Below are positions 20,415-64,000 of a DNA stretch of 64,000 nucleotides, in pieces; the first letter of the stretch is position 1; each line of letters begins with the position of its first letter. Position numbers and translations under genes: made by a program. Source of the stretch: a virus. Its lineage: Duplodnaviria > Caudoviricetes. The stretch is taken from positions 1 to 64,000 of the IMG/VR virus record IMGVR_UViG_3300025358_000002; one strand, given 5' to 3'. The notes under the pieces were generated by a model. The model saw only the letters and a list, made by a program, of their open reading frames with translations, was not told the DNA's origin and searched no databases.

Positions 20415-21134
20415 ATGGAATTCGCAGAAGGATACGGTCCAAAGCAAGTAAAGAAGCCTTATGTTCTGGGTCAGTTCGTTACCGTATATGGTAACGACGG
20501 TACACCTGGTGCTGTTAACCCTGCTGCAACCGCGTACACACCAGTATCTTCCGGTAGTGAGATCACCCTCAATCAATTATGGGCCGGTGGCGTAGTAGGC
20601 GTATTGAGTCCCGGCCTCAACCTCAACGTTAATGGTAATGGCAATACAGACACCTCATTCATCTTTGCCCCTGGTGCTGCAACTGCAATCACTGACTTGA
20701 CCACGGCTGTTCTTAACCTGACACCATCAACAACATTCTCTGGTAGTGCCGGTATTTCATGGCAGGGTTCATATGACCGTTATTCTGCCGCAGATGTTTC
20801 TTGGAACGTAATCGCAACTGGCACAGTAACCAGTGGTGGTGGATCACTTAATCTTAACCAATCTGGCATTGGTAGCGTAGTTTACAACGCTTACCGCATC
20901 GTTGCCAGCGGTACACCGGGAGCCGGAATCATCAACTGGTCTATCCCTGGATTCTTCCTTGACATTAATGCTCAGAGCATTGGTCAGAACGCCACATATG
21001 CTAACGGTGGTATTGGACAGCTTAATATCCAGGACAATGACAGAATTACAATTAGCGGTGGTCAGCAGACCGGATACTCAGAAGATCCAGAACCACTCGC
21101 TGCAATCAAGAATAACGCAGACTACTACGGCTAA
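20415..21134 (+). CDS. putative virion structural protein (beta-rich, SG-rich)
   Basis: SD AGGAG; G/S/T/N-rich, few charged residues. Confidence 0.65.
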   Translation: MEFAEGYGPKQVKKPYVLGQFVTVYGNDGTPGAVNPAATAYTPVSSGSEITLNQLWAGGVVGVLSPGLNLNVNGNGNTDTSFIFAPGAATAITDLTTAVLNLTPSTTFSGSAGISWQGSYDRYSAADVSWNVIATGTVTSGGGSLNLNQSGIGSVVYNAYRIVASGTPGAGIINWSIPGFFLDINAQSIGQNATYANGGIGQLNIQDNDRITISGGQQTGYSEDPEPLAAIKNNADYYG

Positions 21135-21143
21135 GGAGTTGAC

Positions 21144-21332
21144 ATGGAAAGACAACAGAATATAAGATTGGCACGTACACGTCACGTAGGAGCGAATTTC
21201 GACTTCAATGGCAACCCTATTATCCAGAACAATTCTGGTGGTACCGTTCGCCTTAGTGGTCCTATTAGCACATACTCCTGTGGGCACCAATCAATTCCAG
21301 GCATCGATACCTGCAGTTGCCAAGCATATTAG
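21144..21332 (+). CDS. small hypothetical protein
   Basis: SD AAGGAG; CGH...CSC. Confidence 0.65.
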   Translation: MERQQNIRLARTRHVGANFDFNGNPIIQNNSGGTVRLSGPISTYSCGHQSIPGIDTCSCQAY

Positions 21333-21344
21333 GACACACATTAA

Positions 21345-23702: not shown

Positions 23703-23760
23703 ACAACACAAAATTGCATAATTAAATAGGAAGTGCAATTTTTTATTCAAGGATAACCCC

Positions 23761-23949
23761 ATGAGCACACTGTTTAATAATGAAACGCCGCGCATGTTGC
23801 CAAAGCAAGCATTCAATAAGGCCAGTTTCTTAAGCGTCGTAAGCCCTCTCGTTAAGCTAGAGATCATTAAGGAAGGTGAAGGGCTTAAGTGTCGCAATGC
23901 TCACAAGTTGAACCTTGCTGATAGTATCTATGAAAAAATCGAGGACTAA
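23761..23949 (+). CDS. small hypothetical protein
   Basis: SD AAGGA, coupled to the next gene. Confidence 0.6.
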   Translation: MSTLFNNETPRMLPKQAFNKASFLSVVSPLVKLEIIKEGEGLKCRNAHKLNLADSIYEKIED

Positions 23950-24326: not shown

Positions 24327-24328
24327 TT

Positions 24329-24808: not shown

Positions 24809-24809
24809 C

Positions 24810-25205: not shown

Positions 25206-25271
25206 TATTTAACATAGTATTAAACATTACGACGATGTAAAAACTGTGTTAACACAAACTAGGTTACGAAC

Positions 25272-28062: not shown

Positions 28063-28090
28063 CCAATCCCTAACTAAGGAGAAAGAAAAA

Positions 28091-28612: not shown

Positions 28613-28632
28613 TTCTGAAAGGAATATGAACA

Positions 28633-29631: not shown

Positions 29632-29650
29632 TCTTAACAAACGTACCAGT

Positions 29651-30351: not shown

Positions 30352-30393
30352 CAACCGGTGGACTGCAAAGCTCCACCTTTATAAGGAGCTTAA

Positions 30394-30660
30394 ATGAGCG
30401 AAGAGACCAAGAACACAGTGAAGCCCAGCGACGCCGTTGCTGAGCCACTGGGTGCTATCATCCCGAGCGGTACGGTGCTTAGCGGCACCACCATCTACAA
30501 CGAGCCATGGTTCAACGTTTGGGTTCCTCAGACGTTTGCCGGTACTGTTGTTAGCGGTTCTGCCACAGTTACTCTTAGCGGTAACGGCTGGAACGGTCAA
30601 AACAACCAGGGTCTGATTTTTCAGAATGACCAATACAACACAACTGTGAGAGGATTCTAA
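30394..30660 (+). CDS. small SG-rich virion protein
   Basis: SD AAGGAG; 4 SG in 88 aa. Confidence 0.65.
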   Translation: MSEETKNTVKPSDAVAEPLGAIIPSGTVLSGTTIYNEPWFNVWVPQTFAGTVVSGSATVTLSGNGWNGQNNQGLIFQNDQYNTTVRGF

Positions 30661-30661
30661 C

Positions 30662-31399
30662 ATGGCTACAACACCCAACGTCGGTCAGGAACAGCAGAAT
30701 AAGCTGAACCTTCGCGGAGTAACTCGTGGTGGTGCAACACCAGGTATGGTAACACCACCTGTTGATGTCGCCATCATGGTCAATGCTGCTGCCACAACCA
30801 GCGGTATCTTGGAACTCTCAGTTGGTACTGGTACAACAACCTTCACCATCAGTGGTTCAAACGGTGTTACCACCACCCTTACTGGTACCGCAACTGGTAC
30901 ACAGGTTAGCGGTTTGGTCTCTGCACTTGCAGCTGGTCCTTTGAGCGGTTACACGTTCTACGTTAACGAGGGTCTTTCTAACTACCTGTACAACACCACA
31001 ACGAGCATCATTGTTCCTTCCGGTGTTACATTGACGGTTGTTAGTGGTACCGGTGCTGTCCCAACCCTGACTGCTTTTGCTCTCAGCGGTACTGAGGCAA
31101 CCACCTACCCCAACTACGTAGGTACTCCAAACGCTGCTCCTACATGGATCGATGACGCTACAGCCCACTCATATGTAGTAGGTTTCAACGGCAACATCCT
31201 TGGCGGTACAATCCTGAACGCTTCCGGCATTGCTACAACTAGCGGTGCCCTGGTTACCCAACAACAAGTACGTCAGATTCTTACTGGCGCAAATGTTGAC
31301 GGTGGTAGCTCAGACCAGCGTCTCAACGGTTACTTCGCTTCATATAGCGGTAACCTGTACCAGACTGGCCAGAAGAGAACTCAGCGCCAGCAGAACTAA
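30662..31399 (+). CDS. SG/Thr-rich virion protein
   Basis: 10 SG in 245 aa, beta-rich composition. Confidence 0.7.
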   Translation: MATTPNVGQEQQNKLNLRGVTRGGATPGMVTPPVDVAIMVNAAATTSGILELSVGTGTTTFTISGSNGVTTTLTGTATGTQVSGLVSALAAGPLSGYTFYVNEGLSNYLYNTTTSIIVPSGVTLTVVSGTGAVPTLTAFALSGTEATTYPNYVGTPNAAPTWIDDATAHSYVVGFNGNILGGTILNASGIATTSGALVTQQQVRQILTGANVDGGSSDQRLNGYFASYSGNLYQTGQKRTQRQQN

Positions 31400-31539
31400 T
31401 GGAACACTTACCTTTTTCAATAAAGGTAGAAGCAGTAATCGTAAGAGCCAATGGTGACCAGGAATTTCTTGGCGCCATTGGTTCTACTGCATTAAGGGAA
31501 GAAAATGAACACAGTATTGACATCAGCGACAAGAAATAG
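31399..31539 (+). CDS. small hypothetical protein, 46 aa (MEHLPFSIKVEAVIVRANGD...), not in ORF track
   Basis: TAATG coupling, read manually. Confidence 0.5.
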   Translation: MEHLPFSIKVEAVIVRANGDQEFLGAIGSTALREENEHSIDISDKK

Positions 31540-32110
31540 CCTTGTCAACGTCATTACAGGTTCTGGCTATTCCTTGAGTAAGCCAAAATACCTCTCTTGG
31601 GGAACTGGTGTAAGCCCTGCGCTACCCACAGATATTGCTCTTAGCAACCCGATCAGCGGTGTTATCTCTGGAACTGTCAGTACCGTTTCTACCGTTACAT
31701 CAGGTGATACGTACTTCTGTACGGGTACTTTTACTGCTAGTGGGATTGTTTCGGTTACCGAGGTAGGTCTTTTTACCAGTCAGTCTAGTTCAGCCGTAGG
31801 CACTCTTGCAAATCAAGTTGGACCCACAGATACCACTATCACAGTGAGTGGCTATAGCGGCTTTCCAGGCACCTTTCCGTTCAATGTGCAGGTGCTCACC
31901 GAAGTAATGACAGTGACATCTGGAAACGGCACGAATGTCTTCAATGTAATTCGCAACGCAAACGGCTCTAGTAGAGTGCTGGGCACAATCCCAATGTTTA
32001 CTCCGGTCGTAGGACCGGCTGGTTATATGTTCTTGAAAAGCACATTTTCAAGTATTAACTTATACCCAGGGGATAATTTACAATTTAATATCAGCGTACA
32101 ATTCTCTTAG
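31505..32110 (+). CDS. fibre-attachment-type structural protein
   Basis: YLSWGTG..P...D.AL and VTEVGLF typical of fibre N-terminal anchor domains; inserted TEVMTVT..VIR module. Confidence 0.6.
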   Translation: MNTVLTSATRNSLVNVITGSGYSLSKPKYLSWGTGVSPALPTDIALSNPISGVISGTVSTVSTVTSGDTYFCTGTFTASGIVSVTEVGLFTSQSSSAVGTLANQVGPTDTTITVSGYSGFPGTFPFNVQVLTEVMTVTSGNGTNVFNVIRNANGSSRVLGTIPMFTPVVGPAGYMFLKSTFSSINLYPGDNLQFNISVQFS

Positions 32111-32117: not shown

Positions 32118-34751
32118 ATGGCTTACCCCACATATACAACTCCTAGATCAATCGCTGGCGCAGCTGCACCTTCCTATCTTTCTGCAACGCTTGCTAGCGG
32201 GTATTCTGCTGGGCAAACAGTTACAATTGGCAATACATCTGGCTGGTATGAAGTAAGCTCAAGCGGCACTGCCACCACAAACCCATTGGGAACTAGTGGT
32301 GTATTTACGTTGGTGGTTGATTACGGCCTCAGCACAGAGGAAAAGATCCTGTGCGCATCCGGTGCTATCTCTATTGGTGTTAATGCAGTAATCCCAGTGT
32401 GGACAGACGGTACACACAACGGCCGTGGCTGGGATGGAACAAAATCAGTAGCACATGCTACGGGTAGTGGCACCAACCCTAATGTATTCCTCGTTAGAAC
32501 TGCAGTAGATGACCTTCAGTTCAATACATCAGCGGCCACACTAACCAACAACCTTGCTACTCTTTCGGGTCAATATGTCGTCACTAGCGGCATTGTAACT
32601 AATACAACTACCAATGTTGCTGCTCTTAGCGGTTCACTCGCTACCTTGTCTGGCCAATATGTTGTCACCTCTGGCATTGTTACAGCTCAAGCTGGTTACA
32701 TTTCTACGATCTCAGGCAAGCAAGTAACTGATGAAGCAAATATTGCTAGTTTTTCAGGCAGCTTGGCAACCCTCAGTGGTCAATATGTAACAACCAGTGG
32801 GATTGTAACCAGCCACACTGGGTCAATTGCAAGCATCAGCGGTAGCCTTACTACTCTTTCTGGACAGTTTGTTGTGCTAAGTGGTGCATACGCTGCCACT
32901 TCAGGTAGCCTAAACACCGTAAGCGGAGTCGCTTACTCTGCTTTGCAACGATCAGGTGGCACTATCAGCGGTGCATTGAATATCACCAGCCCCATCCTTG
33001 GTGGTGTAACTGCTACTAGCGGACAATCTCTTGTATGGAACAGCACACAATGGGTGCCAGCAACGGTTAGTGGCGGTGGTGGAGGGATCACTTCTCTTAC
33101 CGGTGACGTAACTGCAACCGGCACAGGTGCAGTCGCTGCAACTCTGGTTGGTACAACCGCTGTTAGTGGTGTGGTAAATGCCATTGTCAATAACAACTCA
33201 ACAGTAACAGGAACAGTTGCAAACCTTGCCACATTGAGTGGACAATTCGTTACACTTTCAGGTCAGTTTGCGACCCTTAGCGGCGCCTATGCAACCACAT
33301 CAGGCAACCTCAATACAACAAATGCTAATGTAGCAAGCTTAAGCGGCCAATTTGCTTCACTTTCAGGACAATACTTAACAACGTCTGGCATAGTTACTAC
33401 TGCTACCGGTAACATTGCTACCCTTACCAGTAACCTCGCTACCCTTAGCGGACAATATGCAACCACATCAGGAATCCTCACAACGCTATCTGGTCAATTT
33501 GTTGCATTGTCTGGTGCATACGCCACAACATCAGGCAATTTAAATACAACTAATGCTAACGTTGCAACTCTTTCAGGACAATTTGTAACATTATCTGGGC
33601 AATACAATACAACTAGCGGGATTGTAACTTCCCACACAAGTTCAATTGCTTTAATTAGTGGCAGCTTGAACACTCTTTCAGGGCAATACGTTGCTACATC
33701 AGGCAGTCTAACAACGTTATCGGGTCAGTTTGTAGCACTCAGTGGCGCTTATGCCACTACATCAGGTAACTTAAATACAACCAATACAAATGTATCGAAT
33801 CTTAGTGGTCAGTTTGCTTCATTGTCAGGTCAGTACCTAACAACTTCGGGAATAGTTACTACTGCAACTGGCAACATTGCTACATTAACTAGCAACTTAG
33901 CTACCCTGAGCGGTCAATATGTTGCTACGTCTGGAAGTCTTACAACTCTTAGTGGTCAATTTGTAACATTAAGCGGTGCATATGCAGCGACTTCAAGTTC
34001 TTTGAACACACTTTCTGGACAGTATGTAGCCACTAGTGGTAGCCTTACAACTTTGTCAGGTCAGTTTGTAACGCTTAGTGGGCAATATAACACAACATCT
34101 GGTATTGTTACTGGTCACACGAGCTCTATCGCGCTAATTTCAGGCAACCTTAACACCGTTAGTGGTGTAGCTTATGCTGCCCTGCCAGGATCCGGTGGAA
34201 CTATTAGCGGCAACCTTGTTGTTGCTTCTGGTCTTACTGTATCTGGCACATCAACACACATTGGTAACTCTACGTTTAGTGGTACTCTTACAGTGGCAAG
34301 TGCCATTATCAACCCTATCCTTCAGGGTGCTTATGAAGTTGTATCTTACAGTGGATCAACCGTGCTTAGCGGAACGGCTACTCCAGCTACGCTTAATGCA
34401 GCAAACAGCTCTTTCTATTTCTATAACACAGCACCATCTGGTTCATATACAGTAGCAATCACCGGAGCACCAACCGTGTCTGGTAGAAGCGCCACTTTTG
34501 CTTTGCTTGTAAATAATGGTTCTACGGCTTATTTGCCCAGCAACGTTACCATTAATGGTAATCAAGCGGGTGCAAGTAGCTCAGCACTCCCATTGCAGGG
34601 TGCGACAAACAATAACATTACTACATTTTACCAAGGTGGCACAGCATGGTCTTCAGCGGATGCAAGCACTCTTGATTCATACACGTTTACTGTGATCTGC
34701 ACGTCATCCACCCCAACATGGACATTGTTAGCAGGATTGACAAAGTTCTAA
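32118..34751 (+). CDS. long fibre protein with SG-containing heptad coiled coil
   Basis: Heptads such as LATLSGQ/YVVTSGI; C-terminal domain ending DSYTFTVIC...AGLTKF. Confidence 0.8.
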   Translation: MAYPTYTTPRSIAGAAAPSYLSATLASGYSAGQTVTIGNTSGWYEVSSSGTATTNPLGTSGVFTLVVDYGLSTEEKILCASGAISIGVNAVIPVWTDGTHNGRGWDGTKSVAHATGSGTNPNVFLVRTAVDDLQFNTSAATLTNNLATLSGQYVVTSGIVTNTTTNVAALSGSLATLSGQYVVTSGIVTAQAGYISTISGKQVTDEANIASFSGSLATLSGQYVTTSGIVTSHTGSIASISGSLTTLSGQFVVLSGAYAATSGSLNTVSGVAYSALQRSGGTISGALNITSPILGGVTATSGQSLVWNSTQWVPATVSGGGGGITSLTGDVTATGTGAVAATLVGTTAVSGVVNAIVNNNSTVTGTVANLATLSGQFVTLSGQFATLSGAYATTSGNLNTTNANVASLSGQFASLSGQYLTTSGIVTTATGNIATLTSNLATLSGQYATTSGILTTLSGQFVALSGAYATTSGNLNTTNANVATLSGQFVTLSGQYNTTSGIVTSHTSSIALISGSLNTLSGQYVATSGSLTTLSGQFVALSGAYATTSGNLNTTNTNVSNLSGQFASLSGQYLTTSGIVTTATGNIATLTSNLATLSGQYVATSGSLTTLSGQFVTLSGAYAATSSSLNTLSGQYVATSGSLTTLSGQFVTLSGQYNTTSGIVTGHTSSIALISGNLNTVSGVAYAALPGSGGTISGNLVVASGLTVSGTSTHIGNSTFSGTLTVASAIINPILQGAYEVVSYSGSTVLSGTATPATLNAANSSFYFYNTAPSGSYTVAITGAPTVSGRSATFALLVNNGSTAYLPSNVTINGNQAGASSSALPLQGATNNNITTFYQGGTAWSSADASTLDSYTFTVICTSSTPTWTLLAGLTKF

Positions 34752-39889: not shown

Positions 39890-40410
39890 GCGAGATGGTC
39901 CCAGTACCAGAGCAAATTGCTAGACAAATTGCAATGAGAGCTGTAGAAATTGCGCGCGTTATTGGTCCACGCAAAACCGGTAAAGCCCTTCTTGGTTTGA
40001 CACCTATTTCACAAGAAGGTATTATTGGTATAGATGCTAGTGAAGAAGTAAGTTATATTCTTGATCTAGACCAGGGTATTGAAGAGCACCCTATGACCAA
40101 CCTTGCTGGTCGTAACGTGCCAGTGCGCAGTCCTGGTGGAACAATATTTTTCCGCAGAGCTACAGAAAACAACATTGGTACTATTCCGATTATTACTAGG
40201 CTTTCAAAAGACGGAAGAATCTACAACGGTAAGCCGGAATGGACCTACCCTGCAAAGCCCGGCCTCAACTTTATTCAACGTTCACTAGAGATGAGCGTAG
40301 ACGAATGGTGCAGATCCGCAAACACTCAAAAAGTCGTTGACATGATGCTATTATCGTCTATCAAAGATGATGTAAGCATGTTTGTTTATGGAAAGAAAGC
40401 CAGCGTATAA
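39886..40410 (+). CDS. neck / tail-completion protein
   Basis: P.KTG..., LDQG...H, F..R motifs; position. Confidence 0.5.
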   Translation: MSEMVPVPEQIARQIAMRAVEIARVIGPRKTGKALLGLTPISQEGIIGIDASEEVSYILDLDQGIEEHPMTNLAGRNVPVRSPGGTIFFRRATENNIGTIPIITRLSKDGRIYNGKPEWTYPAKPGLNFIQRSLEMSVDEWCRSANTQKVVDMMLLSSIKDDVSMFVYGKKASV

Positions 40411-41087
40411 TGTTCGTAACAGCCGTAAAAACAACAATTATCGAAGCATTAAACGCAGGATTTAGCCAGCTGTCTAGCCACCCCGTTGATAATAGTTTAG
40501 ATCTTGTTCCCAATAGTATAACCATTGAGTATCCGCTAGAGTTAGTAGCGTGGCCAACCATTCTTGTGCAATTCCGCGCAAGCAAGGTTCAATGGACTGG
40601 ACTCAATCCAGATATTTATTCTGTTTCATCCAGCGGTATTTCTATTAGTGGCACCACATATTCGGGTACCGTAGTAAACAGAACCGGTTATTTTGAGGGA
40701 AGTATTGACCTTCAAATCATGGCAATGCACTCAGAAGAGCGCGACCGCCTTATGGACAGCGTTACAAACTTGATCCTTATGGGTGCGGGTAGCCCCGCTA
40801 GCTCCGCTTTCTACGCCAGTATCTACAACAACGACCTGGTTGGATTGACGCTGTTGCCCAGCACCTATACCAATTTGGGTGACAGCATTAGCTCAGGAAC
40901 TCCGTGGAGCCCAGAGGAATTAACTTACGAAGCCAGCTTCCGCATCAACTGCATTGGCGACTTCTACGAAACAAAATACAACTACGAATTGCCACAGATC
41001 ACAACAATTGTTACGAGTGGGACCCAATACTACCCATCAGTTTCATCGTTGTACCAGCCAGGAACCCCCTGGTATCCGCTTCCTTAA
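40410..41087 (+). CDS. tail terminator-like protein
   Basis: Directly upstream of sheath; IEYP...WPTILV, IMAMHSEERDRLMD. Confidence 0.6.
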   Translation: MFVTAVKTTIIEALNAGFSQLSSHPVDNSLDLVPNSITIEYPLELVAWPTILVQFRASKVQWTGLNPDIYSVSSSGISISGTTYSGTVVNRTGYFEGSIDLQIMAMHSEERDRLMDSVTNLILMGAGSPASSAFYASIYNNDLVGLTLLPSTYTNLGDSISSGTPWSPEELTYEASFRINCIGDFYETKYNYELPQITTIVTSGTQYYPSVSSLYQPGTPWYPLP

Positions 41088-43445: not shown

Positions 43446-44447
43446 ATGTCTGCTCGTTCTTTTGTTATTCAACTCCAGCCAGGTCAAGGCCAGGCTCTCC
43501 TTCCTGATCACCGCAAGATGATCCCTGGTGTACAGTACGTCGTTGACGCTGACACCTTCAACCGGATCTCTCTTAGCGCACGTCAGAACGTAATCCAAGT
43601 TGTAACAGTCAACATGGATGCTACTAACACTGGTGCTACCAGCGTTAGCGGTACCTATGTTCCCGCCCAAGCTTCTTCAGGTATCAACCGTCAGGTGTTC
43701 GGTGCTGGTCAATCAGCGCTTAACATCCTTGGTACCGTAAGCCCTAACGCATCAACATTCAGCCTTGCTGGATTTGCTGCACAGGGTTGGAGCGCCGGTG
43801 GTGAGACTGGTTCCAACACTGGTATTAGCACTCCTCAGTCAACTTTGAGCGGTAATGCTGTCAATGTTGCTTTGACAAGCCCAGACGGTGCTCGCTACGT
43901 ACTCGGTTACAACGGCACCGCATCAACCATCTCTGGTGGTTGGGCTACCGTATGGTATGACTACAACAACCGCTACATCTCAACTGCTTCTGGTGTTTCT
44001 TTGCTCGTTAAGCAGGACAGCCTCGGCACGCCTTACGCTGTCAGCGTCAACACGACTTTGTCAGGTGTAAACGGTAACGTTGTTACTGTCGGCACAAAGC
44101 AGGGTGAGTTCGCAGGTATTGCTCTCACGAACATTCCTGCCGGTAACTTCGGTTTCATTCAGATCGAGGGTACCTGCCCAAGCGCAGTTGTGGCTTCCGG
44201 TACTGCTGTAGGTGCTACCGTAGCTGTTAGCGGCACAAGCAACAACGGTGTTCTTGCCGTTCCTGCAACCACCACTACATCTGTCAGCACTGCTGGTGTT
44301 GTAACTGGTTCAGCCCTTGCTAACAACACTGTTGGTACAGTTCTTACTGCTCCTGCATCAGGCACCAATGGTCAGTTCTACTCGGTCATTGAGATCCGCA
44401 GCCGCCGCTCCAAGAAGCCCTACAACCGCTTCCTGAACAAGAACTAA
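43446..44447 (+). CDS. SG-rich structural protein with cement-like C-terminal domain
   Basis: FAGIALTNIPAGNFGFIQIEG resembles capsid-cement folds; biased codons. Confidence 0.5.
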   Translation: MSARSFVIQLQPGQGQALLPDHRKMIPGVQYVVDADTFNRISLSARQNVIQVVTVNMDATNTGATSVSGTYVPAQASSGINRQVFGAGQSALNILGTVSPNASTFSLAGFAAQGWSAGGETGSNTGISTPQSTLSGNAVNVALTSPDGARYVLGYNGTASTISGGWATVWYDYNNRYISTASGVSLLVKQDSLGTPYAVSVNTTLSGVNGNVVTVGTKQGEFAGIALTNIPAGNFGFIQIEGTCPSAVVASGTAVGATVAVSGTSNNGVLAVPATTTTSVSTAGVVTGSALANNTVGTVLTAPASGTNGQFYSVIEIRSRRSKKPYNRFLNKN

Positions 44448-52668: not shown

Positions 52669-53130
52669 ATGAAGACGATCACAGTTAGCAACGGCGATAT
52701 TCAATTAAACAGCGGAAAACTGCAGTTTTCCTATGGTTCAAATAAACTAGCACAAGACATTGCTTTGTGGCTTGAAGAACCTTTGGGGACGGGGTGGACT
52801 ACACCTAATTTTGGTAGCCTTCTTCCTGGCATGATCGGTCAATCTCAGACTAGCGGAACACCCGCAAGCATTGAAACTGAGATAATTAGAGTGTTACAGT
52901 TGTACCAGGGCAATCAAATCTTGGCACTACAAAATGCGCAAAATTCTGCTCAACTATCGATCTGGAATAGAAACGAGATTATACAAAACATTGTTTCTGT
53001 CAACGCAACGGTCTCAAACAACAACGGGACACAGATTAATGCCACCATTGTCATTCAAACACTTGCTGGCAACCTTGTTAACTTAATCGCTTCTATCAAT
53101 AACAACGGAGTCACGGTCCAAAATGGCTGA
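52669..53130 (+). CDS. baseplate wedge subunit (gp25-like)
   Basis: KLAQDI..WL.EPLG...PNFGSLL..MIG. Confidence 0.7.
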   Translation: MKTITVSNGDIQLNSGKLQFSYGSNKLAQDIALWLEEPLGTGWTTPNFGSLLPGMIGQSQTSGTPASIETEIIRVLQLYQGNQILALQNAQNSAQLSIWNRNEIIQNIVSVNATVSNNNGTQINATIVIQTLAGNLVNLIASINNNGVTVQNG

Positions 53131-55648
53131 TACAACAGGAATTCTAGCTAGATTACAAGCAGCTCTCACCACGTACGACCCTTCATGGGACGTAAGCGTA
53201 GGCAGCCCTACCTACAAGATCTTTGAATCAGTTGCTCAGGAAATCGCAAACGCTAACAACAACTCTACGCTGCAGACTTACAGCTACAATATTAACACAA
53301 AATCCGGTAGTGACCTTGACACGTTTGTCAATTTGTTTGGTATCTATCGTCAGCTCGGTAAGAGATCTGTTGGAACCGTATCGTTTATTTCAAATACGCC
53401 AGCCATCAGTATCATCAATATTCCATTGGGAACTCAGGTAGCTGTACCAGTTGGCCCAAGGTACACAACGCCAATTTACTTCACCACTACTGCGCCTGCT
53501 ATTATCCCAATTGGCGGCACACAAACAAACGTGCCAGTCATTGGAACCCTGCCCGGTGTGTTCGGCAACGTTCCTGCTAATACCATTACGGCAATGGTAA
53601 CCACTCTTAACGGAGTCACGTCAATTGCCAATGTTAACCCCACTACTGGTGGTACTGATCCTGAAAGCGACGCCCAGCTTCGATCAAGATGGCAGGCTAC
53701 CGCATTCAACAACACTACCGGCACCAACGGTAAGTACATTGTTACTGCTTTGCAGAACCCAAACGTCAACCTTGCCAACGCTGTAAGCTCACAGTCTTTC
53801 TATGACGAACAGTTGTCAATTCAAGCAACGGTTAGTGGCGGCTCTAGCAACGTAACATTCCAGATGATTGCATACAGTGGCATGACTAACGTAGTAAGTG
53901 GCACTGTATACAGCGGAACCAATATCGTTACATATAGCGGCTTCACTTCATCAACAACTGGCACTGCACTTGCTTCTGGCCTTCAGGCAATGGTCAGTGG
54001 TGTTGCACCTAATTACGGTATTAACGTAACGGCAACACCTTCAGGAAACACAATCAACCAGGGTCTTAATATCCAATTCGGTGGACCTAGCCCATACCGC
54101 TTGACAATTGGTAGTGGCAACACGCTTAGTGCAAGTGGCGTAACAGGTGTTACTGGTGCAGTTACCATTAGTGGCACAACGTACACGGAATACGTACGTA
54201 GTGGCAACCCCGACATCGGTGCTCCAGGAACTTTGTCCTACAACCCAACATATAGCGGCTACCTATATCCACAGGGGAACGAGCTTGTAGGAACTAGCTT
54301 AAACTCAGCAAGTCAAACTGTATACGTTCCTAACTCTGACTACTACTACAACAGCGGTGGTACGTACACAGTAAGTGGTACCTTCTCGCCACAGCTGTTC
54401 TTGTCAATTGCTAACCCCACAAACAGCGGGACAATGTTTATTGGCAACACGGTTGAAGTGATCTCGGAATATAACCCTGCCTCCAATCGTTCATTGACAA
54501 TTACTAGCGGTAACTACGTAGACGTATTTATCGATGGTACAACAGCTGGCATTGCTACCGAACAAGTTGTGTTTAACCCATCCTTTACGTTGTCTTCGGG
54601 CAATAGCATCAGGTACTTGAACTCAGGGAACTACGTACTTGGTAGCGGTGGCAGCGCAGGCACTCACACAACAACCGATACTCAGGGTGACTACTACATC
54701 CCACTTGATCGTCAGCCACTTATCAACTTCCCATCGCAGCTCAGTGCAGCTTCTAGCGGAATTGCTGACACTTTTTTCCTTTACAATCCTATCAACAACA
54801 CTGGGGCAACTTACCCAATTTGTTTGAATCCATACAATTTTATTACGTTTACTGGAACCGTAACGGCGTCCCAATATACGTATATAAATGTTTACGGTGT
54901 AACAGTTACTGGATCCACCGTATCGGGTATTAACTTCGTTTCTGTTCCAAACGCAAACACGTTCCTGGCACCCGGGTTGGCGTTGGCACAAGATGGTAGT
55001 GGTATCCTCGGTGCTGGTACGTGGATTTCAAGTGTGTCGAGCAGCGGTATTTACTTGAGCTCATCGGTATCAAACAGCGGAACAACAACCTTTAGTGGTA
55101 AGTCCGTTGCTTATCCAATTTACGATAACACCAATCAAGCGAACAGTGTTCACTCGATGACAGGTATTGTTCTGGACGCATCCACACCGCCTTCAGGATG
55201 GCCATCTCAGCCATCTACTCCATCATGGGTACAGTACACACACAACTACAACAATGACGTTGTAGACGTAGAAGCACTTGTTCAGCAGAGCAGACCATTT
55301 GGTACCAACACCATGGTTCACCAGGCCGTCTTTCAGCGATTGAGTGTAAGCGTAAGAATCGTATTCTCCAGTGGGTACAGTCTGCCAATTGTTCAGTCGA
55401 GCATCTTGAACCAACTTCAGAACTATTTCAATGGCAGCGGGTATCTTTCTATCATCTCGTTTGCTCAGATTCAAACCCAGATCATGAACGTAGCTGGTGT
55501 ATCAAACGCACGTGTTACAAGTGTAAGCACAACGGCTCTGGATGGCACGGTTCTCAGTACATACACATCAGACTTCCTGCTTCCAAGCAACCAGTTACCA
55601 TTGATCAGCAACATTAATTACACAATTGTTGGAGCAAGCACCTTCTAA
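53123..55648 (+). CDS. baseplate J-like wedge protein with large SG-rich insertion
   Basis: DLDTFV..FGIYR, GNVPANTI, GGTDPESDAQLRSR, VAGVSNARV. Confidence 0.85.
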   Translation: MADTTGILARLQAALTTYDPSWDVSVGSPTYKIFESVAQEIANANNNSTLQTYSYNINTKSGSDLDTFVNLFGIYRQLGKRSVGTVSFISNTPAISIINIPLGTQVAVPVGPRYTTPIYFTTTAPAIIPIGGTQTNVPVIGTLPGVFGNVPANTITAMVTTLNGVTSIANVNPTTGGTDPESDAQLRSRWQATAFNNTTGTNGKYIVTALQNPNVNLANAVSSQSFYDEQLSIQATVSGGSSNVTFQMIAYSGMTNVVSGTVYSGTNIVTYSGFTSSTTGTALASGLQAMVSGVAPNYGINVTATPSGNTINQGLNIQFGGPSPYRLTIGSGNTLSASGVTGVTGAVTISGTTYTEYVRSGNPDIGAPGTLSYNPTYSGYLYPQGNELVGTSLNSASQTVYVPNSDYYYNSGGTYTVSGTFSPQLFLSIANPTNSGTMFIGNTVEVISEYNPASNRSLTITSGNYVDVFIDGTTAGIATEQVVFNPSFTLSSGNSIRYLNSGNYVLGSGGSAGTHTTTDTQGDYYIPLDRQPLINFPSQLSAASSGIADTFFLYNPINNTGATYPICLNPYNFITFTGTVTASQYTYINVYGVTVTGSTVSGINFVSVPNANTFLAPGLALAQDGSGILGAGTWISSVSSSGIYLSSSVSNSGTTTFSGKSVAYPIYDNTNQANSVHSMTGIVLDASTPPSGWPSQPSTPSWVQYTHNYNNDVVDVEALVQQSRPFGTNTMVHQAVFQRLSVSVRIVFSSGYSLPIVQSSILNQLQNYFNGSGYLSIISFAQIQTQIMNVAGVSNARVTSVSTTALDGTVLSTYTSDFLLPSNQLPLISNINYTIVGASTF

Positions 55649-56610
55649 TGCCGGGCAACGTCTTCCCAATATCTCCTCACTCTACCTTAGCCAAGAAGGT
55701 AGAGAACTTCCCTGAGCAGATTTACAACTTTAATGAGGGCGACAATCTCACAAACCTTATGACCATTTTGCTTGGCAACAGTGGAACTGGTCAGCTCAGA
55801 AATATTCAGACCGTAGCACGCCTTGGGCAAGAAATCATTGAGTTCAGTAACCTGGACAACATCCTCGGTCAAATCTACCAAATCAATAGAATTTCATCTG
55901 AGATCTATAGCTTCGCTACTAACCCGTTCATTGACCAGCTTCTTAATGCGCAATGGGAAGAAGTGCAACGTAAGGACGCTCTTTACCGCGAACGTTTGCT
56001 GGGAGCAGCGGAAGCATTTCAGATCGGTGCCAACCTATGGGGTATCCTCACCTTGTGCGAAGCTATCACTGGTATCAAGTTCTATGCGCTTGAAAGCTGG
56101 AGAACTCCTGGGTATGGCAGAGCAGGACTCAACGCAGGTCAAGAAATTGTTCTTATCCCCTTGGTTGACGGGAACGTATTCAAGTGGGATCAGAGCAAGG
56201 CTCAGGGAATTCTTTCTGCAATACAAAAGATTGTCCCCAACAACTACATCATTAGTTTTGGCAATCCATATCTGACAATGACGCAAGTGCCGCTAAGCAG
56301 CGTTACCGTTTCTGGCGGCAATCCAGTGGGTTATTCTGAATACTTTTATTTGCAGCCAACAGTAACGGCAACGAACATTTATACGCCAGCAAACATTACG
56401 CCAGGTGCTGGTACTAGATACTGGCTCACAAGAAATCAGCAAAGTGTTGCTCCATACTTTGCTCACTTACAGACTGAAGAAATCATCATTGACCTAACGG
56501 GCAACATTGTAAACGTTTCTAGCACAGATACAAATGGAAACGGTGCCCCAAGTAATAGCGTTGCCATCCCTACAGTACAAGTTACATCTACCCTTTATGG
56601 TGCACAATAA
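55648..56610 (+). CDS. baseplate wedge protein (gpI-like)
   Basis: FPEQIY, LDNILG, D..YRERL; follows J. Confidence 0.6.
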   Translation: MPGNVFPISPHSTLAKKVENFPEQIYNFNEGDNLTNLMTILLGNSGTGQLRNIQTVARLGQEIIEFSNLDNILGQIYQINRISSEIYSFATNPFIDQLLNAQWEEVQRKDALYRERLLGAAEAFQIGANLWGILTLCEAITGIKFYALESWRTPGYGRAGLNAGQEIVLIPLVDGNVFKWDQSKAQGILSAIQKIVPNNYIISFGNPYLTMTQVPLSSVTVSGGNPVGYSEYFYLQPTVTATNIYTPANITPGAGTRYWLTRNQQSVAPYFAHLQTEEIIIDLTGNIVNVSSTDTNGNGAPSNSVAIPTVQVTSTLYGAQ

Positions 56611-59600
56611 TGTCGATCATCCCAAGTAATACTGACCCGTTACAGGAATATGTAAGCGGTGGTGCGACTCCACCATTAACAATTAACGGGCTTGTATATA
56701 ACAAGATCTATGCACAAACAGGTGTGCTTGACACCATCAAGACCAACCAACGCACTGGGTATACAGATCCCAACATCAGCATTGTTAACGGGTCCAACAA
56801 CCTCACTATCTTTGACCAATTTGTTGAAAACACGTGGATCTCTAGCCAGCAATTCGGTGGACCCAACAGCCCTCCTGTTATCCTGACATACAATTTCAGT
56901 ACCAACACCTACTTTAACATTGTCAAACTGTATGCGCTTAATGTTCCATGCTTTGTTGAACTAGGTTGGATTGACACCAACAACAATTGGAACGCTCTTC
57001 CTGGTTCCTCCACGTTTGTTAACGCCGGTGGCTCTGATATCTACACCACTACTGACTGGTTGCCCCTTACATACAACGCACCGTCTACACAGTACACACC
57101 CAATTTAGCAATCCGGATCACACGCAACCAAGCGGTTCAAGGTATTAGCAATGGTATCCCTGTAGACCTTGCATACTCGGTGGGCCTTACATCCGTCAGT
57201 GTCCGTTTGCAAGTGCTGCAAGAATCTGATGTACCTTCTGCGGTTATCAACGGAACAAACTCCGTCAATACGCAGAACCGTTTTGGTTTCTTAGAGAACT
57301 ACACGTTTGTCAACGATCCTATAGCCAACATTTATGGCAATGACACTGCATTCTGGAAGTGTGCACCACAACCAACTGGCGACTCCATTGTTTATTTTTA
57401 CGCTCAGGTAAGTGACCCTACGCCAACAACGATCAACCGTCTATACATTGACCCAATGTACAGCGGATGTAAGTTCAACATCTACTGGACTACTCAGTCC
57501 ACTGCAGGTGGAACTGTTGACCCAGGTCAGTTCACATGGACACCAATTCAGAGAGACTTTAATCTGCGTAAAGGGCTCTATGATTTGCCAAACGTTACGT
57601 GTACGTACTTGAAGTTTGAGTTCACACAGCTTATACCAGAAGCATATGACCTGCCTGTTGACGTCATCACAAAAACTGTCAACGTGTTTCCTTCAGATGT
57701 TGAAGAATATTACAGTCAAATTGAAAGCAACATTATCGATGGAAACTCTGTTCAGTACAGTTTCCTTGGCAACAACAACAACCCACAAACTTCAACTACC
57801 ACAAACCTGAATGCTTCTACGCTGTTTGGCCTGTCTTCAAATACTATCAACAATGACATCTCTTGGCCAAACCTAGGTTCACTTAATTCTTCACAGCTTG
57901 GTAATACCACTACGACTGCTCTTACAACCAACTCCTACATTACTGACCCTACTTTTAGTTACAAAACCATTGACAACAATGGTAATTACAATAACGTTGC
58001 ATACAACCAGTTCTTGCAGCGTCGTTTCCCGTGGACAACCGTACACAACTACACTCAGATTACTATTGATCAGAGCTGGCACGAAGCCTACTTCACGGGT
58101 ATCCAGTATCTTACAGCGTTTTACGAACAACAGTTTGACGATATCCGCAGCAACCCAACCAATCTGATCGCAAGTAACGGCACCACCAACGGTTTTATTT
58201 CTCAGAATGTTAACTACGTGGGTCTTAACCCCGATGACACTGCCACAACAAAATGGTACTCAACTCTTGATACATTCACCAGTTTTAATATCGGTGCTCT
58301 TACTAGTGACTGGAGCAGTTTCTTAACAGATTCGCAAGTTCTTATGAACGATTCATCGGTTCTGCTTAGCCAGTACAGAGATAATTGTTCCGCCAGCGGT
58401 ATTGGCAACTTTGGAACCAGCACCATTGTTGCTGTTTCAGGTCTTGCCAGCAACAACTCTTATAGCATTCGTTCAGCAGCGTACCCAACATCGAGTAACG
58501 AAATTGCGTATACAGATGCAAACTTTATCACGATCAACAATTGGTCAGGTTTGAGCGGCACCACCGTAGCAACACAAAAAGTGTCTTGGATTTCTGGCAC
58601 TACAAGTGGTACCGCTAGCGGGTTGTCTGTTAGTGCTGGTGCATACACAGCTGTATACAACTTCACTATTCCAGGTGTAGCGGCAAGCGGTACTACGCCA
58701 TGGCTTCTTGATTTTGGTGCTCCAGCAGAGGGTGTTACTGGTTATGGTGTCTATAACCCAACGAACCAATCTTTAAGCTATTACTTCTACACAGGGGTAC
58801 AAGTATCCGGCAATAGCTCTGGCATCTCACAGGTAAGCGGAACGCTTAGTGCCTACACACAGTTCGTGAATTCATCCAATGCTCCTGTTAGCGGTACGGT
58901 CGTACCAGGATCTACGGTTACATTCGCATCCGGTAGCGGTAGCAACCTTGGCTACTTGACATCAACGAACTATACCAGCAGCATTCCAACAAACACAATC
59001 CAGCTCGTTATCAGTGGCTTTGGTAGCCCGTACAACTTGTACCAACTTGGTGCTTTCCCATCACCAACAACTACATGGACATCTCCACAAGACCGAAACA
59101 ACATGCGTGTAAGTGGTGTTGCCAGAATGTTCTTACCCTTTACTGATAAGGGTACATACAGAATTAGTTTATTTGCAAGCAACGGTGCAACGCAGACAGA
59201 GCTTGCGTTCAAGCAGTTCTCATCTGGGCAGATCCCTCTCAATACGTGGTTTGAAGTACAACTGGAATCTTTTACGGGTAAAAACTACTCCAATTTCTAC
59301 GTACAAATTACCCAGGTAAACCAGTTTGTTGACGAAGTATTTTACGTAAGTATGCTGTCACCCTTCTACCACCCAGTACGTTTTGAGTACAGCACTATTA
59401 GCGGAGCTGCAACCAACTACCAGGTAATCACTGGTCCTATTAATGATCCTACATATTTTGTGAGCACCACATCAGGTATTCCAGCCAGTGGTATTCAGCT
59501 GAGGATGACCGCTCTTGACCCAAACGTTTTCATTTCTGGAGTGAGTGTTGTTCCTTATTACAAGAGTAGTCCTTACTATGCAGAACTGGATATTGATTAC

Positions 59601-59744
59601 GTTGGCAACAGTAAAACCAACGAGGTCAGTTCACGTAGAGCTGTAGCGAACAAACCGTTCTTTCAGAATACTACTGAGGTTTATCCTCTCCGTTTCAATG
59701 TAGATACTGTAGTAGGACCTACGACAAATTACGTTTCAGCTTGA
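56610..59744 (+). CDS. large baseplate / tail structural protein
   Basis: 1044 aa beta-rich, end of the tail module. Confidence 0.7.
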   Translation: MSIIPSNTDPLQEYVSGGATPPLTINGLVYNKIYAQTGVLDTIKTNQRTGYTDPNISIVNGSNNLTIFDQFVENTWISSQQFGGPNSPPVILTYNFSTNTYFNIVKLYALNVPCFVELGWIDTNNNWNALPGSSTFVNAGGSDIYTTTDWLPLTYNAPSTQYTPNLAIRITRNQAVQGISNGIPVDLAYSVGLTSVSVRLQVLQESDVPSAVINGTNSVNTQNRFGFLENYTFVNDPIANIYGNDTAFWKCAPQPTGDSIVYFYAQVSDPTPTTINRLYIDPMYSGCKFNIYWTTQSTAGGTVDPGQFTWTPIQRDFNLRKGLYDLPNVTCTYLKFEFTQLIPEAYDLPVDVITKTVNVFPSDVEEYYSQIESNIIDGNSVQYSFLGNNNNPQTSTTTNLNASTLFGLSSNTINNDISWPNLGSLNSSQLGNTTTTALTTNSYITDPTFSYKTIDNNGNYNNVAYNQFLQRRFPWTTVHNYTQITIDQSWHEAYFTGIQYLTAFYEQQFDDIRSNPTNLIASNGTTNGFISQNVNYVGLNPDDTATTKWYSTLDTFTSFNIGALTSDWSSFLTDSQVLMNDSSVLLSQYRDNCSASGIGNFGTSTIVAVSGLASNNSYSIRSAAYPTSSNEIAYTDANFITINNWSGLSGTTVATQKVSWISGTTSGTASGLSVSAGAYTAVYNFTIPGVAASGTTPWLLDFGAPAEGVTGYGVYNPTNQSLSYYFYTGVQVSGNSSGISQVSGTLSAYTQFVNSSNAPVSGTVVPGSTVTFASGSGSNLGYLTSTNYTSSIPTNTIQLVISGFGSPYNLYQLGAFPSPTTTWTSPQDRNNMRVSGVARMFLPFTDKGTYRISLFASNGATQTELAFKQFSSGQIPLNTWFEVQLESFTGKNYSNFYVQITQVNQFVDEVFYVSMLSPFYHPVRFEYSTISGAATNYQVITGPINDPTYFVSTTSGIPASGIQLRMTALDPNVFISGVSVVPYYKSSPYYAELDIDYVGNSKTNEVSSRRAVANKPFFQNTTEVYPLRFNVDTVVGPTTNYVSA

Positions 59745-59769
59745 TCTTTTTCTTGATCGGTGATATGAT
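59741..59769 (+). promoter_or_regulatory. sigma-A promoter driving a leaderless mRNA
   Basis: TTGATC-17 nt-TATGAT with extended TG; ATG 59776 is 7 nt downstream. Confidence 0.6.
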
Positions 59770-59775
59770 TTGTTC

Positions 59776-61629: not shown

Positions 61630-61678
61630 AAAGGATGTAAAGGTGGGGAGAACTTGGTCCCAGATAGTGAGGCGGCTG

Positions 61679-61773
61679 AATGTTTATCGTCGTCTCCAGA
61701 AGGGCCCGGTCTTCCTCGGGGGTCGCAGTCGGTGTCATACTTTGACTCCCCCCGAGGCCCTTCTGTAAACATT
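61679..61773 (+). promoter_or_regulatory. long structured leader upstream of whiB
   Basis: AATGTTTA/TAAACATT, CAGAAGGGC/GCCCTTCTG, CTCGGGGG/CCCCCGAG, AGTC/GACT pairings. Confidence 0.55.
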
Positions 61774-62133
61774 ATGCAATTAACAATTGATTACAGCTGG
61801 CAAAACAATGCCACGTGCAGCACCATGGACCTCAATGATTTTTTCTTAGGTCACGGTAAAAAATATTCAAAAGCAGTATCTGATGCGTGCACCTCTTGTC
61901 CGGTAAACAAAGAATGCTTAGACCATGCATTGAAGTATGAAGAGTATGGTTTTTGGGCTAACACCACGCCGCAAAGACGAGTAAAGATGCGCAAGGAACT
62001 TGGCATCAAGGTAGAAAGCATCACGTACGAATCTCAAAAAGCTGCTGACAAAGATGCTGCCAAGATAGAAGAGACGCGTGTTAAGATTAGAGGGCGCGGC
62101 AGAAAGCCACGCAATCTTCAGGAGCAGCTATGA
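61774..62133 (+). CDS. whiB: WhiB-family Fe-S transcription factor
   Basis: W...A.C..DFF..ACTSCPV..ECL.HAL..GFWA; C-terminal AT-hook-like RGRGRKPR. Confidence 0.85.
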   Translation: MQLTIDYSWQNNATCSTMDLNDFFLGHGKKYSKAVSDACTSCPVNKECLDHALKYEEYGFWANTTPQRRVKMRKELGIKVESITYESQKAADKDAAKIEETRVKIRGRGRKPRNLQEQL

Positions 62134-62831
62134 GATCAGTTAGAGTCGGTTTGGTAATCCCCGTATTGAATAACTTCGATCAAGCAATCGATGCCATCTA
62201 CTCAGCTAAGAGTGAAAACGATCTTAGGATCTACATCCAACCACAGTATCGTTATCAGGTGCCATTGGCAGCAGCATGGAATCGTGGCATCAAACAAGCT
62301 TACAATGATGGCTGTGTTGTTACTATTGTTAGTAACGACGACGTTCTGTTCGCCCCAAACACCATCGATGAACTGGCCGATGCGGCTAGAGACATGAACG
62401 ACGATGAGATCATGGTGCACCCCAACGACATCCTGGAAATACTGGATGACCCGTCAGAAATTTTATTCTTAGACGAATGGGGCGACGAACCACTTAGTCA
62501 CGAAGATCAAACATTCTCGTGCTTTGCTATCAGATCAGACTTTACTTCTGAGATGGGTACGTTCGATGAGAACTTTGACCCAGCCTGGTGGGAAGACACT
62601 GACATGAAGTACCGTATCAATCTCATGGGTTACAAACGTGTGCGTACACACATTCCATATGTGCACCTGCGCCACCAGTCAACACAGAAGCTGAACCTTC
62701 CACTCAACTCATTGAAGAGTGGCGAATACTATGCTAAGAAGTGGGGTAGCAACGGTAGAGGCTTGACAGAAACGTTTACCAACCCGTATAATGATCCTAG
62801 CTTAAGTCCTACAGAGTGGAGAAAACTGTGA
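62130..62831 (+). CDS. glycosyltransferase family 2 (GT-A)
   Basis: LVIPV, AAAWNRGI, SNDDV, FDENFDPAWWEDTD, HL. Confidence 0.85.
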   Translation: MRSVRVGLVIPVLNNFDQAIDAIYSAKSENDLRIYIQPQYRYQVPLAAAWNRGIKQAYNDGCVVTIVSNDDVLFAPNTIDELADAARDMNDDEIMVHPNDILEILDDPSEILFLDEWGDEPLSHEDQTFSCFAIRSDFTSEMGTFDENFDPAWWEDTDMKYRINLMGYKRVRTHIPYVHLRHQSTQKLNLPLNSLKSGEYYAKKWGSNGRGLTETFTNPYNDPSLSPTEWRKL

Positions 62832-64000
62832 GCAAGACGCGCGTATTGGCATGGGGCGACTACGCCTGCAGTACTGGATTCGGCACCGTGATGAAGAACA
62901 TCATGAGTGAGTTAAACAATACTGGCAAGTATGAGATTGACGTTGTGGGTGTCAACTATGACGGTGGCCCATACGACACTGAGAAGTGGCCAGGCACACT
63001 GTGGCCAGCCATCAGCGCACTGCGCACACAGGGTCCATACGGTGACGTGTTCGGTCGACAGGTATTCCTAGACCTGCTGGGAACACGTGAGTACGATGTT
63101 GTGTTTATCGTGCAAGACACGTTCATCGTTCTGCCAATCGTAGCTCAGATCCTCGAGCTGCAGCGCACTAAAACTAAGACGTTCTCCACTGTTTACTACT
63201 ACCCGTTCGACTGCGCACCACGAGAAGAGTGGGTCACTCAGTGTGTTGCTAGCTTTGACTTCCCTGTTGCTTATACGGAATACGCAAAGAACGAAAGCCG
63301 AAAGTTCATTGGTGGTTTGGCAGACAAGCAGCACGTTATCTACCACGGTACCAACACCAAGGACTTCTACCCATTGTCACCAACCGACAAAGAATCTGCA
63401 CGCCAGTCAATCTTCCCAGCTCAGCTGCAAGACAAGTTTATTATCACCAATGTCAACCGTAACCAGGGGCGCAAGGATGTGTCTCGTAGCTTGATGATTC
63501 TCAAGCAGCTGAAAGACATGGGTGTTAAGGAAGCATTCCTTTACATGCACATGCAGGAGACGGACTTCGGTGGCAGCCTTATGCAAATGGCACAAGCTAT
63601 TGGTGTTAAGCCAAGCGAAGACTTCACCGTACCAGACCCACGTCAGTTCGGTGCGCACAGTGGATTTCCCATTGAGTTTCTCAACGGTATCTACAACGCT
63701 AGTGACTGCTACTTGACCACCACACACGGTGAGGGTTGGGGACTTAGTATCACTGAATCTATGGCCACCAAGCTTCCTGTTGTTGCTCCTGACAACACCT
63801 CAGCACCTGAGATCCTGGGTAATGACCGTGGCTGGAGAATTAGCAGTGGCCGTACACCTTCGCACTGGATTATCAAGGACAACGACAACGAGCGTATGCG
63901 TCCGCTGATGGATGTTGAAGAGGCCGCCAACACCATCAAGTACATCATGGACAACCCTGACGAAGCTGCTCGGCGTGCTGAGAATGCTTACGCATGGATC
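62828..64000 (+). CDS. glycosyltransferase family 4 (GT-B), 3'-truncated, not in ORF track
   Basis: GTGA overlap; MSKTRVLAWGDYACSTGFGTV..., IYHG, NVNRNQGRKD, YNASD...GEGWGLSITESMA..PVVA. Confidence 0.88.
   Translation, partial: MSKTRVLAWGDYACSTGFGTVMKNIMSELNNTGKYEIDVVGVNYDGGPYDTEKWPGTLWPAISALRTQGPYGDVFGRQVFLDLLGTREYDVVFIVQDTFIVLPIVAQILELQRTKTKTFSTVYYYPFDCAPREEWVTQCVASFDFPVAYTEYAKNESRKFIGGLADKQHVIYHGTNTKDFYPLSPTDKESARQSIFPAQLQDKFIITNVNRNQGRKDVSRSLMILKQLKDMGVKEAFLYMHMQETDFGGSLMQMAQAIGVKPSEDFTVPDPRQFGAHSGFPIEFLNGIYNASDCYLTTTHGEGWGLSITESMATKLPVVAPDNTSAPEILGNDRGWRISSGRTPSHWIIKDNDNERMRPLMDVEEAANTIKYIMDNPDEAARRAENAYAWI

Follow-up and report, generated by a model that had tools for sequence, protein, structure and literature searches.

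The locus described here raises the question of why a single dipeptide, Ser-Gly (SG), recurs far above expectation in the predicted outer proteins of a tailed phage that also encodes a group of sugar enzymes, and whether the serine of this motif is a site of protein glycosylation or an element of protein structure. The window, that is, the entire stretch of DNA that was analyzed, consists of the first 64 kb (64,000 nucleotides) of IMG/VR record IMGVR_UViG_3300025358_000002, which is 106,865 bp long, has a GC content of 47% and is estimated to be 72% complete. A preliminary description of the segment from position 20,415 to the end of the window had proposed that SG marks the sites at which phage glycosyltransferases modify the whole virion. 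As detailed below, the SG excess is a peptide-level feature that is specific for Ser as opposed to Thr and directional (SG but not Gly-Ser, GS), it is limited to the outer tail, fibre and post-capsid-gene proteins, and it is inherited together with a conserved gene for a family 4 glycosyltransferase (GT4). SG is a candidate acceptor code for O-glycosylation, a role to which we give somewhat less than an even chance.

Extent and specificity of the Ser-Gly excess

SG and GS were counted in 58 translated open reading frames (ORFs), with the expected numbers calculated from the Ser and Gly content and z-scores derived from 500 shuffles per protein. The hand counts in the preliminary description were all exactly reproduced, and an excess of SG over what the Ser and Gly content predicts was evident, above all for the 877-residue fibre protein (32118..34751; this and the other SG-containing genes listed here are on the plus strand), with 69 SG against 16.4 expected (z 14.8) and 14 GS, and for the baseplate wedge J protein (53123..55648; 30 SG against 10.3 expected, z 7.2). 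Strong excess was also found in a 1044-residue distal or minor tail protein that matches the minor tail protein family phrog_2840 (56610..59744; 23 against 8.3, z 5.7), a 245-residue protein with no assigned role (30662..31399; 10 against 2.6, z 5.0), an 88-residue protein encoded downstream of the major head gene, for which the PHROG search yielded no match (30394..30660; 4 against 0.8, z 4.3), and a 201-residue protein (31505..32110; 8 against 3.2, z 3.3), the N-terminus of which resembles that of a fibre-like protein in one of the loci compared below (L106). A 333-residue protein encoded after the tube gene shows a mild excess (43446..44447; 9 against 4.4, z 2.6), as do a 225-residue neck or tail protein with a SSSGISISGTTYSG loop (40410..41087; 5 against 2.0, z 2.5) and the tail sheath, recognized by a weak match to Pfam Phage_sheath_1C (41153..42946; 10 against 5.5, z 1.9); taken singly, the excess in these three proteins is weak. 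In the sheath, all SG dipeptides lie within residues 1-340 (10 against 4.0 expected), and residues 341-597 contain none (1.6 expected). The earlier roster of SG-rich outer proteins thus holds for the fibre, J and the products of the genes at 30662 and 30394, is weak for these last three, and had missed the proteins encoded at 56610 and 31505. The designation of the 40410 product as a tail terminator is not backed by any named family, the match being to phrog_2748, which is annotated as of unknown function. The reported scarcity of SG in the tube (0), helicase (1), major head protein (2), portal (3) and tape measure (3) was confirmed.

When the fibre is set aside, none of the 400 dipeptides is more over-represented in the tail and virion proteins than SG (140 observed against 80.1 expected), whereas GS and Thr-Gly (TG) occur at 0.77 and 1.03 times the expectation, and none of the SG-rich proteins is enriched in GS. 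The second outlier in this set is Gly-Thr (128 against 88), partly because of the tripeptide SGT. Outside positions 20415-59744, the genome is at expectation (98 SG against 91.4). The context at the 162 non-fibre SG sites approximates [A/V/I/Y]-S-G-[T/I], with no enrichment of Asp or Glu. BLASTP comparisons among the SG-rich proteins detected zero similarity, which rules out a shared SG-rich domain as the source of the excess and indicates a cause at the level of the phage.

An excess of this kind could also be an artefact of composition or of the DNA itself, through a Ser/Gly-rich makeup, slippage or a favoured DNA word. The SG-rich proteins are indeed rich in Ser, Gly and Thr, and in J the Ser of SG is encoded by AGY codons in 23 of 30 cases, compared with 30 of 76 for the other Ser residues, a bias that is not seen in the fibre. 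Nevertheless, the shuffles, which keep the composition, yield z-scores of up to 14.8 for SG with no enrichment of GS, and all six Ser and all four Gly codons are in use. The Ser residues of the fibre SG dipeptides are encoded by 33 AGY and 36 TCN codons and the Gly residues by all four codons, and Tandem Repeats Finder reports a single 48-bp array, so that the fibre gene contains almost no DNA-level repeat. Together with the ranking of the 400 dipeptides, these results refute an artefact, which we regard as hardly credible. The composition-preserving shuffles, the codon diversity and the lack of a DNA tandem repeat argue for selection at the peptide level, as had previously been argued from the use of both Ser codon families.

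The fibre consists of an N-terminal domain, a heptad shaft (about residues 140-700) and a C-terminal beta-sandwich. Residues 131-700 hold 56 of the 69 SG dipeptides, and 51 of the 68 intervals between successive SG are 7, 14 or 21 residues long, with SG at one fixed position of the repeat [L/T/I]-S-G-[Q/..]-[Y/L/F/V]-[V/T/A/N]-[T/A/S]; SG is enriched outside the repeat as well, in both the N-terminal (6 against 2.0) and the C-terminal (7 against 2.6) part. The protein matches PF21300, a beta-roll family with 7-residue half-turns, in five stretches (E-value 1e-23; 83.6 bits, cut-off 30), and the two strongly hydrophobic positions of the repeat are spaced 3 and 4 residues apart, as in the a/d pattern of a coiled-coil heptad. 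In the AlphaFold2 model of the monomer, built from an 11-row alignment, the shaft has no secondary structure and the predicted local distance difference test score (pLDDT) is 34.5. The shaft may therefore be either a beta-roll or a coiled coil, because the hydrophobic positions fit both folds equally well. The fibre homologues in the relatives are SG-rich (z 8-16), whereas a heptad fibre in locus L111, which matches the shaft weakly (29% identity, E-value 8e-4), shows no SG excess.

Several further features of heptad fibres were observed. A DNA-pattern scan of IMG/VR for seven consecutive in-frame [S/T]-G heptads recovered mostly trivial 21-bp tandem repeats and one member of the clade, and no usable collection of independent SG-heptad fibres emerged from it. 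Several unrelated viral contigs (L123, L128, L131, L133, L156, L162, L166 and L192) contain heptad arrays of the form LSG[DN]CSG or SG[IL]xGNV, with 10-34 SG per short ORF, perhaps in-frame readings of 21-bp tandem repeats. In a fibre homologue of 2036 residues (L100:6001-12108), a block of GVAIG-type repeats, similar to the head repeats of trimeric autotransporter adhesins, is located between SG-heptad segments. Residues 718-877 of the fibre, its final 160, share 59% identity with the C-terminal portion of a 261-residue protein whose gene (51845-52630) immediately precedes those of the baseplate, suggesting that two proteins of this phage possess the same probable receptor-binding domain.

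The J protein is readily identified (Pfam Baseplate_J, PF04865, E-value 2e-27; phrog_6), and its AlphaFold2 model, built from a 38-row alignment (pLDDT 84.4), is matched by Foldseek to baseplate wedge chains of phiCD508, phi812 and Mu (E-values 1e-11 to 1e-9). An insertion at about residues 230-700 holds 27 of the 30 SG dipeptides. The suggestion that structural models would place SG in exposed loops is supported in part: in J, 25 of the 30 SG map to loops or strand edges and two to a helix, whereas the fibre model has no confident fold. We then set SG against 12 other dipeptides in alignments of homologues. Among 21 J sequences, SG occupies 27 columns common to at least 8 sequences, compared with 14 for Gly-Thr and at most 8 for the other 11 dipeptides tested; in the non-conserved columns, SG occurs at 1.46 times the expectation, whereas NG, GN, AG and TG are at 0.5-0.7 times. 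Within the insertion, the Ser of SG is retained more often than other Ser residues (0.51 against 0.32), and the Gly of SG is retained like other Gly. The 22 aligned sequences of the 1044-residue protein share 24 conserved SG columns, compared with at most 11 for any other dipeptide tested. The signal is, then, mainly an unusual number of conserved SG positions, and continuing gain is in evidence only in J.

Relatives and the sugar gene cassette

The sugar genes form a cassette of six proteins at positions 62130-66790 of the record, which runs past the end of the window, in agreement with the earlier suggestion that further sugar genes might lie beyond position 64000. The cassette starts with a gene for a 233-residue possible glycosyltransferase of the GT-A fold (62130..62831, plus strand), followed by the GT4 gene, which encodes a glycosyltransferase of the GT-B fold (62816..64099 of the record, plus strand, with the window ending at 64000); the remaining genes encode a 219-residue protein without an assignment, an S-adenosylmethionine-dependent methyltransferase, an NAD epimerase/dehydratase and a 195-residue GT2. 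The preliminary description had named an adjacent GT2 and GT4; the latter assignment stands, with PF00534 at 39.8 bits (cut-off 26.4), PF13692 at 31 bits (cut-off 27) and PF20706 at 26 bits, whereas the putative GT2 at 62130-62831 falls below threshold (PF00535, 19.1 bits, cut-off 23.3). The GT2 located farther along the cassette is above its Pfam cut-off, and the epimerase/dehydratase is closest to the GDP-fucose synthase model, well under the cut-off of that model. The GT4 contains the Ex7E motif in its C-terminal domain (residues 306-314), and its best relative among solved structures is the chlorovirus glycosyltransferase B736L (E-value 2.7e-5). Five of the six cassette proteins show no conspicuous transmembrane segment, and the one hydrophobic stretch of the GT4 is read as part of the protein core rather than as a membrane segment.

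The contigs encoding other J homologues are only 4-7 kb long, too short to include sugar genes, and relatives were therefore collected as 80 IMG/VR loci around J homologues, by profile-guided scans. In the two nearest J groups (36 loci; J 33-71% identical by tblastn), J is SG-rich in 36 of 36 loci (16-32 SG, z 3.5-9.9), and the homologues of the 1044-residue protein are likewise SG-rich. Summed over seven relatives, the homologues of the protein encoded at 30662 contain 47 SG against 15.3 expected, with 12 GS, and for the homologues of the protein encoded at 31505 the sum is 59 against 26.1. A GT4 gene whose product is 59-80% identical follows the helicase and WhiB genes within the locus (10 kb) in 29 of these 36 loci and is found elsewhere in the record for two more (67% and 52% identity); the records of the last five are truncated or far from complete. 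Only the GT4 accompanies the SG-rich proteins throughout: the GT-A-like gene is present in about half of the relatives (copies 54-66% identical), and the methyltransferase, the epimerase and the second GT2 are missing from most of them. Since most relatives keep the excess with the GT4 alone or with the GT4 and the GT-A-like gene, the pattern does not depend on the complete cassette. Across the loci L004-L043, no counterpart of the epimerase or of the second GT2 was seen, save for a 23% epimerase-like match in L037 and L043, and the 219-residue protein gene has a counterpart only in L016, with a weak methyltransferase match (37% identity). Homologues of the GT4 fall into more than 100 clusters, all on contigs of at most 138 kb; to judge from this distribution, the GT4 gene is a core gene of the phage group, seen only on phage-sized contigs.

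The remaining 44 loci are distant (J 31-40% identical), and their J proteins are mostly about 600 residues long and lack the insertion. None of the 36 J proteins scorable among them exceeds a z-score of 2.2, and in none of the 44 loci did we detect a GT4 homologue or an excess of SG over GS in the neighbouring genes. PF00534 is absent from 18 of 20 distant records and present in 1 of 12 complete ones. As far as a single clade goes, the earlier prediction is thus supported, in that the SG-rich relatives carry the GT4 and the SG-poor distant ones mostly lack a GT1-family gene. More generally, among 138 J homologues from a library of 1.8 billion proteins, SG occurs at 1.44 and GS at 1.27 times the expectation, with a z-score above 5 in only two, and the strongest excess in the nearest relatives. 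The long-fibre proteins gp34-37 of phage T4 show no SG excess. The fibre match also led to an unrelated phage with 36% GC (L112-L120; IMGVR_UViG_3300008259_000013, 174,551 bp), in which fibre-region proteins of 262, 292, 461 and 596 residues are SG-rich (z 4.3-7.7); this record yields three GT1-family matches, one of them inside a 1120-residue protein.

Glycan acceptor or structural motif

A single cause that would account most economically for these observations is protein glycosylation. SG would be a selected motif on the outer, fast-evolving parts of the particle, namely the fibre shaft, the J insertion, the 1044-residue protein and the three small proteins encoded after the head gene, and its Ser would be the acceptor for O-glycosylation by the conserved phage GT4 in the host cytoplasm. 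The variable neighbours of the GT4 (the GT-A-like protein, the GT2, the methyltransferase and the epimerase/reductase resembling GDP-fucose synthase) could lengthen or diversify the sugar in certain lineages. The shaft motif of the fibre would serve two purposes, since its fixed place in the heptad would set out the sites in a regular row. The shared excess is most simply explained by a factor at the level of the phage, for which the GT4 is the only candidate found throughout the clade. From these sequence patterns we infer that the GT4 acts on protein and that SG is its site, as well as all features of the glycan. For glycosylation of DNA, a conceivable but less likely role of the cassette, no thymidylate-synthase-like hydroxymethylase was found in the 72%-complete record or among the replication genes scanned. 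In its full form, the scheme envisages a two-residue SG code that is read by one conserved GT4, with O-glycans coating the fibres, the baseplate and the distal tail throughout a large clade of actinobacterial phages from fresh water and with variable accessory enzymes diversifying the sugar; we advance it tentatively, as a composite proposal that is slightly less probable than the acceptor role as such.

Several observations weigh against glycosylation. The fibre accounts for 30% of the SG in the region, and there the motif is built into a structural heptad repeat, similar to that of a beta-roll family whose turn is Ser-Gly. In the 1044-residue protein, the excess lies wholly at conserved positions (observed/expected ratio for non-conserved SG, 1.07), which fits a structural role as well. 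The mycobacteriophage Myrna, which is reported to be glycosylated, has no SG excess (88 SG against 77 expected, and 94 GS, in 30 proteins of the structural region), and Tetrasphaera phage TJE1, which encodes a 38% identical GT4 within an epimerase/methyltransferase cluster of its own, shows only a modest one (17 against 6.7 in three distal tail proteins). Searched by tblastn against 50,697 phage records, the GT4 yielded 17 matches, none of them from Mycobacterium, with no mycobacteriophage similarity at an E-value of 1e-5. Its score attains the threshold of the Pfam model 'GT4 in conflict systems' as well, so that it may have another target. The claim that SG is virion-wide does not hold for the major head protein, with its 2 SG. 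Finally, the association between SG and the GT4 represents one, or at most two, evolutionary events, and common descent within a single clade explains their co-occurrence as well.

Alternatively, SG may have a structural role only, as a turn or cap in the beta-rich surface domains and in the fibre repeat that is passed on by descent in this clade, with the cassette acting elsewhere, for example on host envelope precursors or in superinfection exclusion. We consider this explanation plausible but short of probable, and equally likely as a glycosylation acceptor code. It accords with the strict heptad register of SG in the fibre and the highly significant PF21300 match, with the location of SG at turns and strand edges in J, with the concentration of most of the excess in positionally conserved columns, with the Gly of SG being no more conserved than other Gly, and with the mild excess in J homologues at large, as well as with the behaviour of Myrna and TJE1. 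However, the excess is shared, within one phage clade, by proteins that are dissimilar by BLASTP, NG, GN and AG, the pairs typical of turns, are depleted where SG is enriched, and the Ser of SG is held more tightly than other Ser, so that a purely structural role is not an easy fit. Moreover, the T4 fibres, the distant J relatives and the heptad fibre of L111 have no excess, and the GT4 is a conserved core gene as opposed to a sporadic accessory. The Ser specificity and conservation are also compatible with a side-chain role of some other kind, such as a different Ser modification (phosphorylation or acylation) or an adhesion or solubility motif on exposed loops, without any link to the GT4. 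Yet the annotated parts of the record contain no candidate Ser-modifying enzymes other than those of the sugar cassette, and the GT4 is the one clade-wide companion of the motif; such a function appears improbable.

Genome context and known systems

The gene matches in Pfam and PHROG indicate that the record encodes a contractile-tailed phage. In addition to the genes discussed above, the window includes those for the portal (21345; phrog_2833), the major head protein (28633-29631; phrog_2522), a tube-like protein (42955), a tape-measure-sized protein (45418) and a hub protein with an NlpC/P60 domain (49071). Downstream of the tail genes come an SNF2-type helicase, a WhiB-like regulator (61654..62133, plus strand; Pfam Whib, E-value 5.8e-13), directly 5' of the sugar genes, and the cassette itself, and the helicase-WhiB-GT4 synteny is kept in the relatives. 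The cultured phages nearest by J are the cluster C mycobacteriophages, including Myrna, and Rhodococcus phage E3 (30-33% identity). The WhiB gene and these relatives point to an actinobacterial host for this uncultured freshwater phage, which is known from a metagenome. A blastn search of the tail region against the 50,697 phage records gave zero matches. The major head protein is 96-99% identical across the relatives, whereas J, the 1044-residue protein and the fibre are only 41-80% identical, which implies much more rapid evolution of the outer tail than of the capsid. Next to the fibre gene, positions 34718-35773 encode a 351-residue protein that consists of 30% glycine, with long GGxGG runs and weak matches to phrog_4474 and the glycine-rich Pfam domain PF21722; SG is not in excess in this protein (9 against 13 expected).

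Glycosylated virions have been described for a few mycobacteriophages, and the literature searched gave no simple rule for the acceptor sites. If SG is the site, glycosylated phage proteins would become predictable from sequence alone, and abundant freshwater phages would carry a sugar coat on their host-recognition machinery, which could affect adsorption, host range, particle stability and resistance to grazing or enzymes. If SG is structural instead, the case would demonstrate that even a strong clade-specific dipeptide bias beside sugar genes is no evidence of a sequon.

Glycosylated virion proteins, modified by phage-encoded glycosyltransferases, have been reported for the mycobacteriophages Che8, Corndog and Myrna (PMC12363180). 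The present phage resembles these in being an actinobacterial phage with its own soluble glycosyltransferases, whose proposed target is virion protein, and Myrna is a distant relative, with a 30% identical J and a syntenic structural module. The phage differs from these mycobacteriophages in that its GT4 is not detectably similar to their gene products and its proposed targets are fibre and baseplate proteins rather than the capsid. A bacterial precedent is TibC, which attaches heptose to serines of TibA and leaves the threonines unmodified. Of the mapped sites, Ser-313, within QNSGGAV, is a Ser-Gly, whereas Ser-322 precedes Ala, so SG is not the sequon of TibC (PMC4358343). As envisaged for the phage, TibC and Aah are cytoplasmic enzymes that attach many sugars to serines in the turns of repetitive beta-helical surface proteins, TibA and AIDA-I, respectively; unlike the phage GT4, they belong to a different family, an iron-finger dodecamer that uses ADP-heptose (PMC4358343). 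No names resembling autotransporter heptosyltransferases (BAHT) appear among the Pfam and NCBIfam matches of the six cassette proteins, although no search aimed at BAHT was made.

In animals, Ser-Gly is the acceptor for proteoglycan O-xylosylation. The analogy drawn in the preliminary description fails on sequence context, given that the acidic flanks of the animal sites are absent from the phage SG sites, and among the cassette genes none was recognized as xylosyltransferase-like or as encoding a UDP-xylose synthase. On the structural side, the fibre resembles the grass ice-binding protein of PF21300 and YadA-like head repeats in its 7-residue period, in which Ser precedes a Gly at the turn, but its shaft lacks an Asn ladder. 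Among glycosylation systems of Gram-positive adhesins, SdgA and SdgB act on Ser-Asp repeats and GtfA/B on serine-rich repeat proteins; of these, SdgB and GtfA belong to GT4 and modify Ser-X repeats. The phage GT4 is not a member of the SdgA/SdgB group (16 bits, NCBIfam cut-off 800), its match to a 505-residue group-1 glycosyltransferase chain (7ec1; E-value 0.006) covers the nucleotide-binding half only, and its matches to the adhesin O-GlcNAc transferases appear generic. Even so, the predicted arrangement in the phage would parallel these adhesin systems in three respects: a GT4-type enzyme of the GT-B fold, the Ser of a two-residue repeat, and fibre-like surface proteins as the target.

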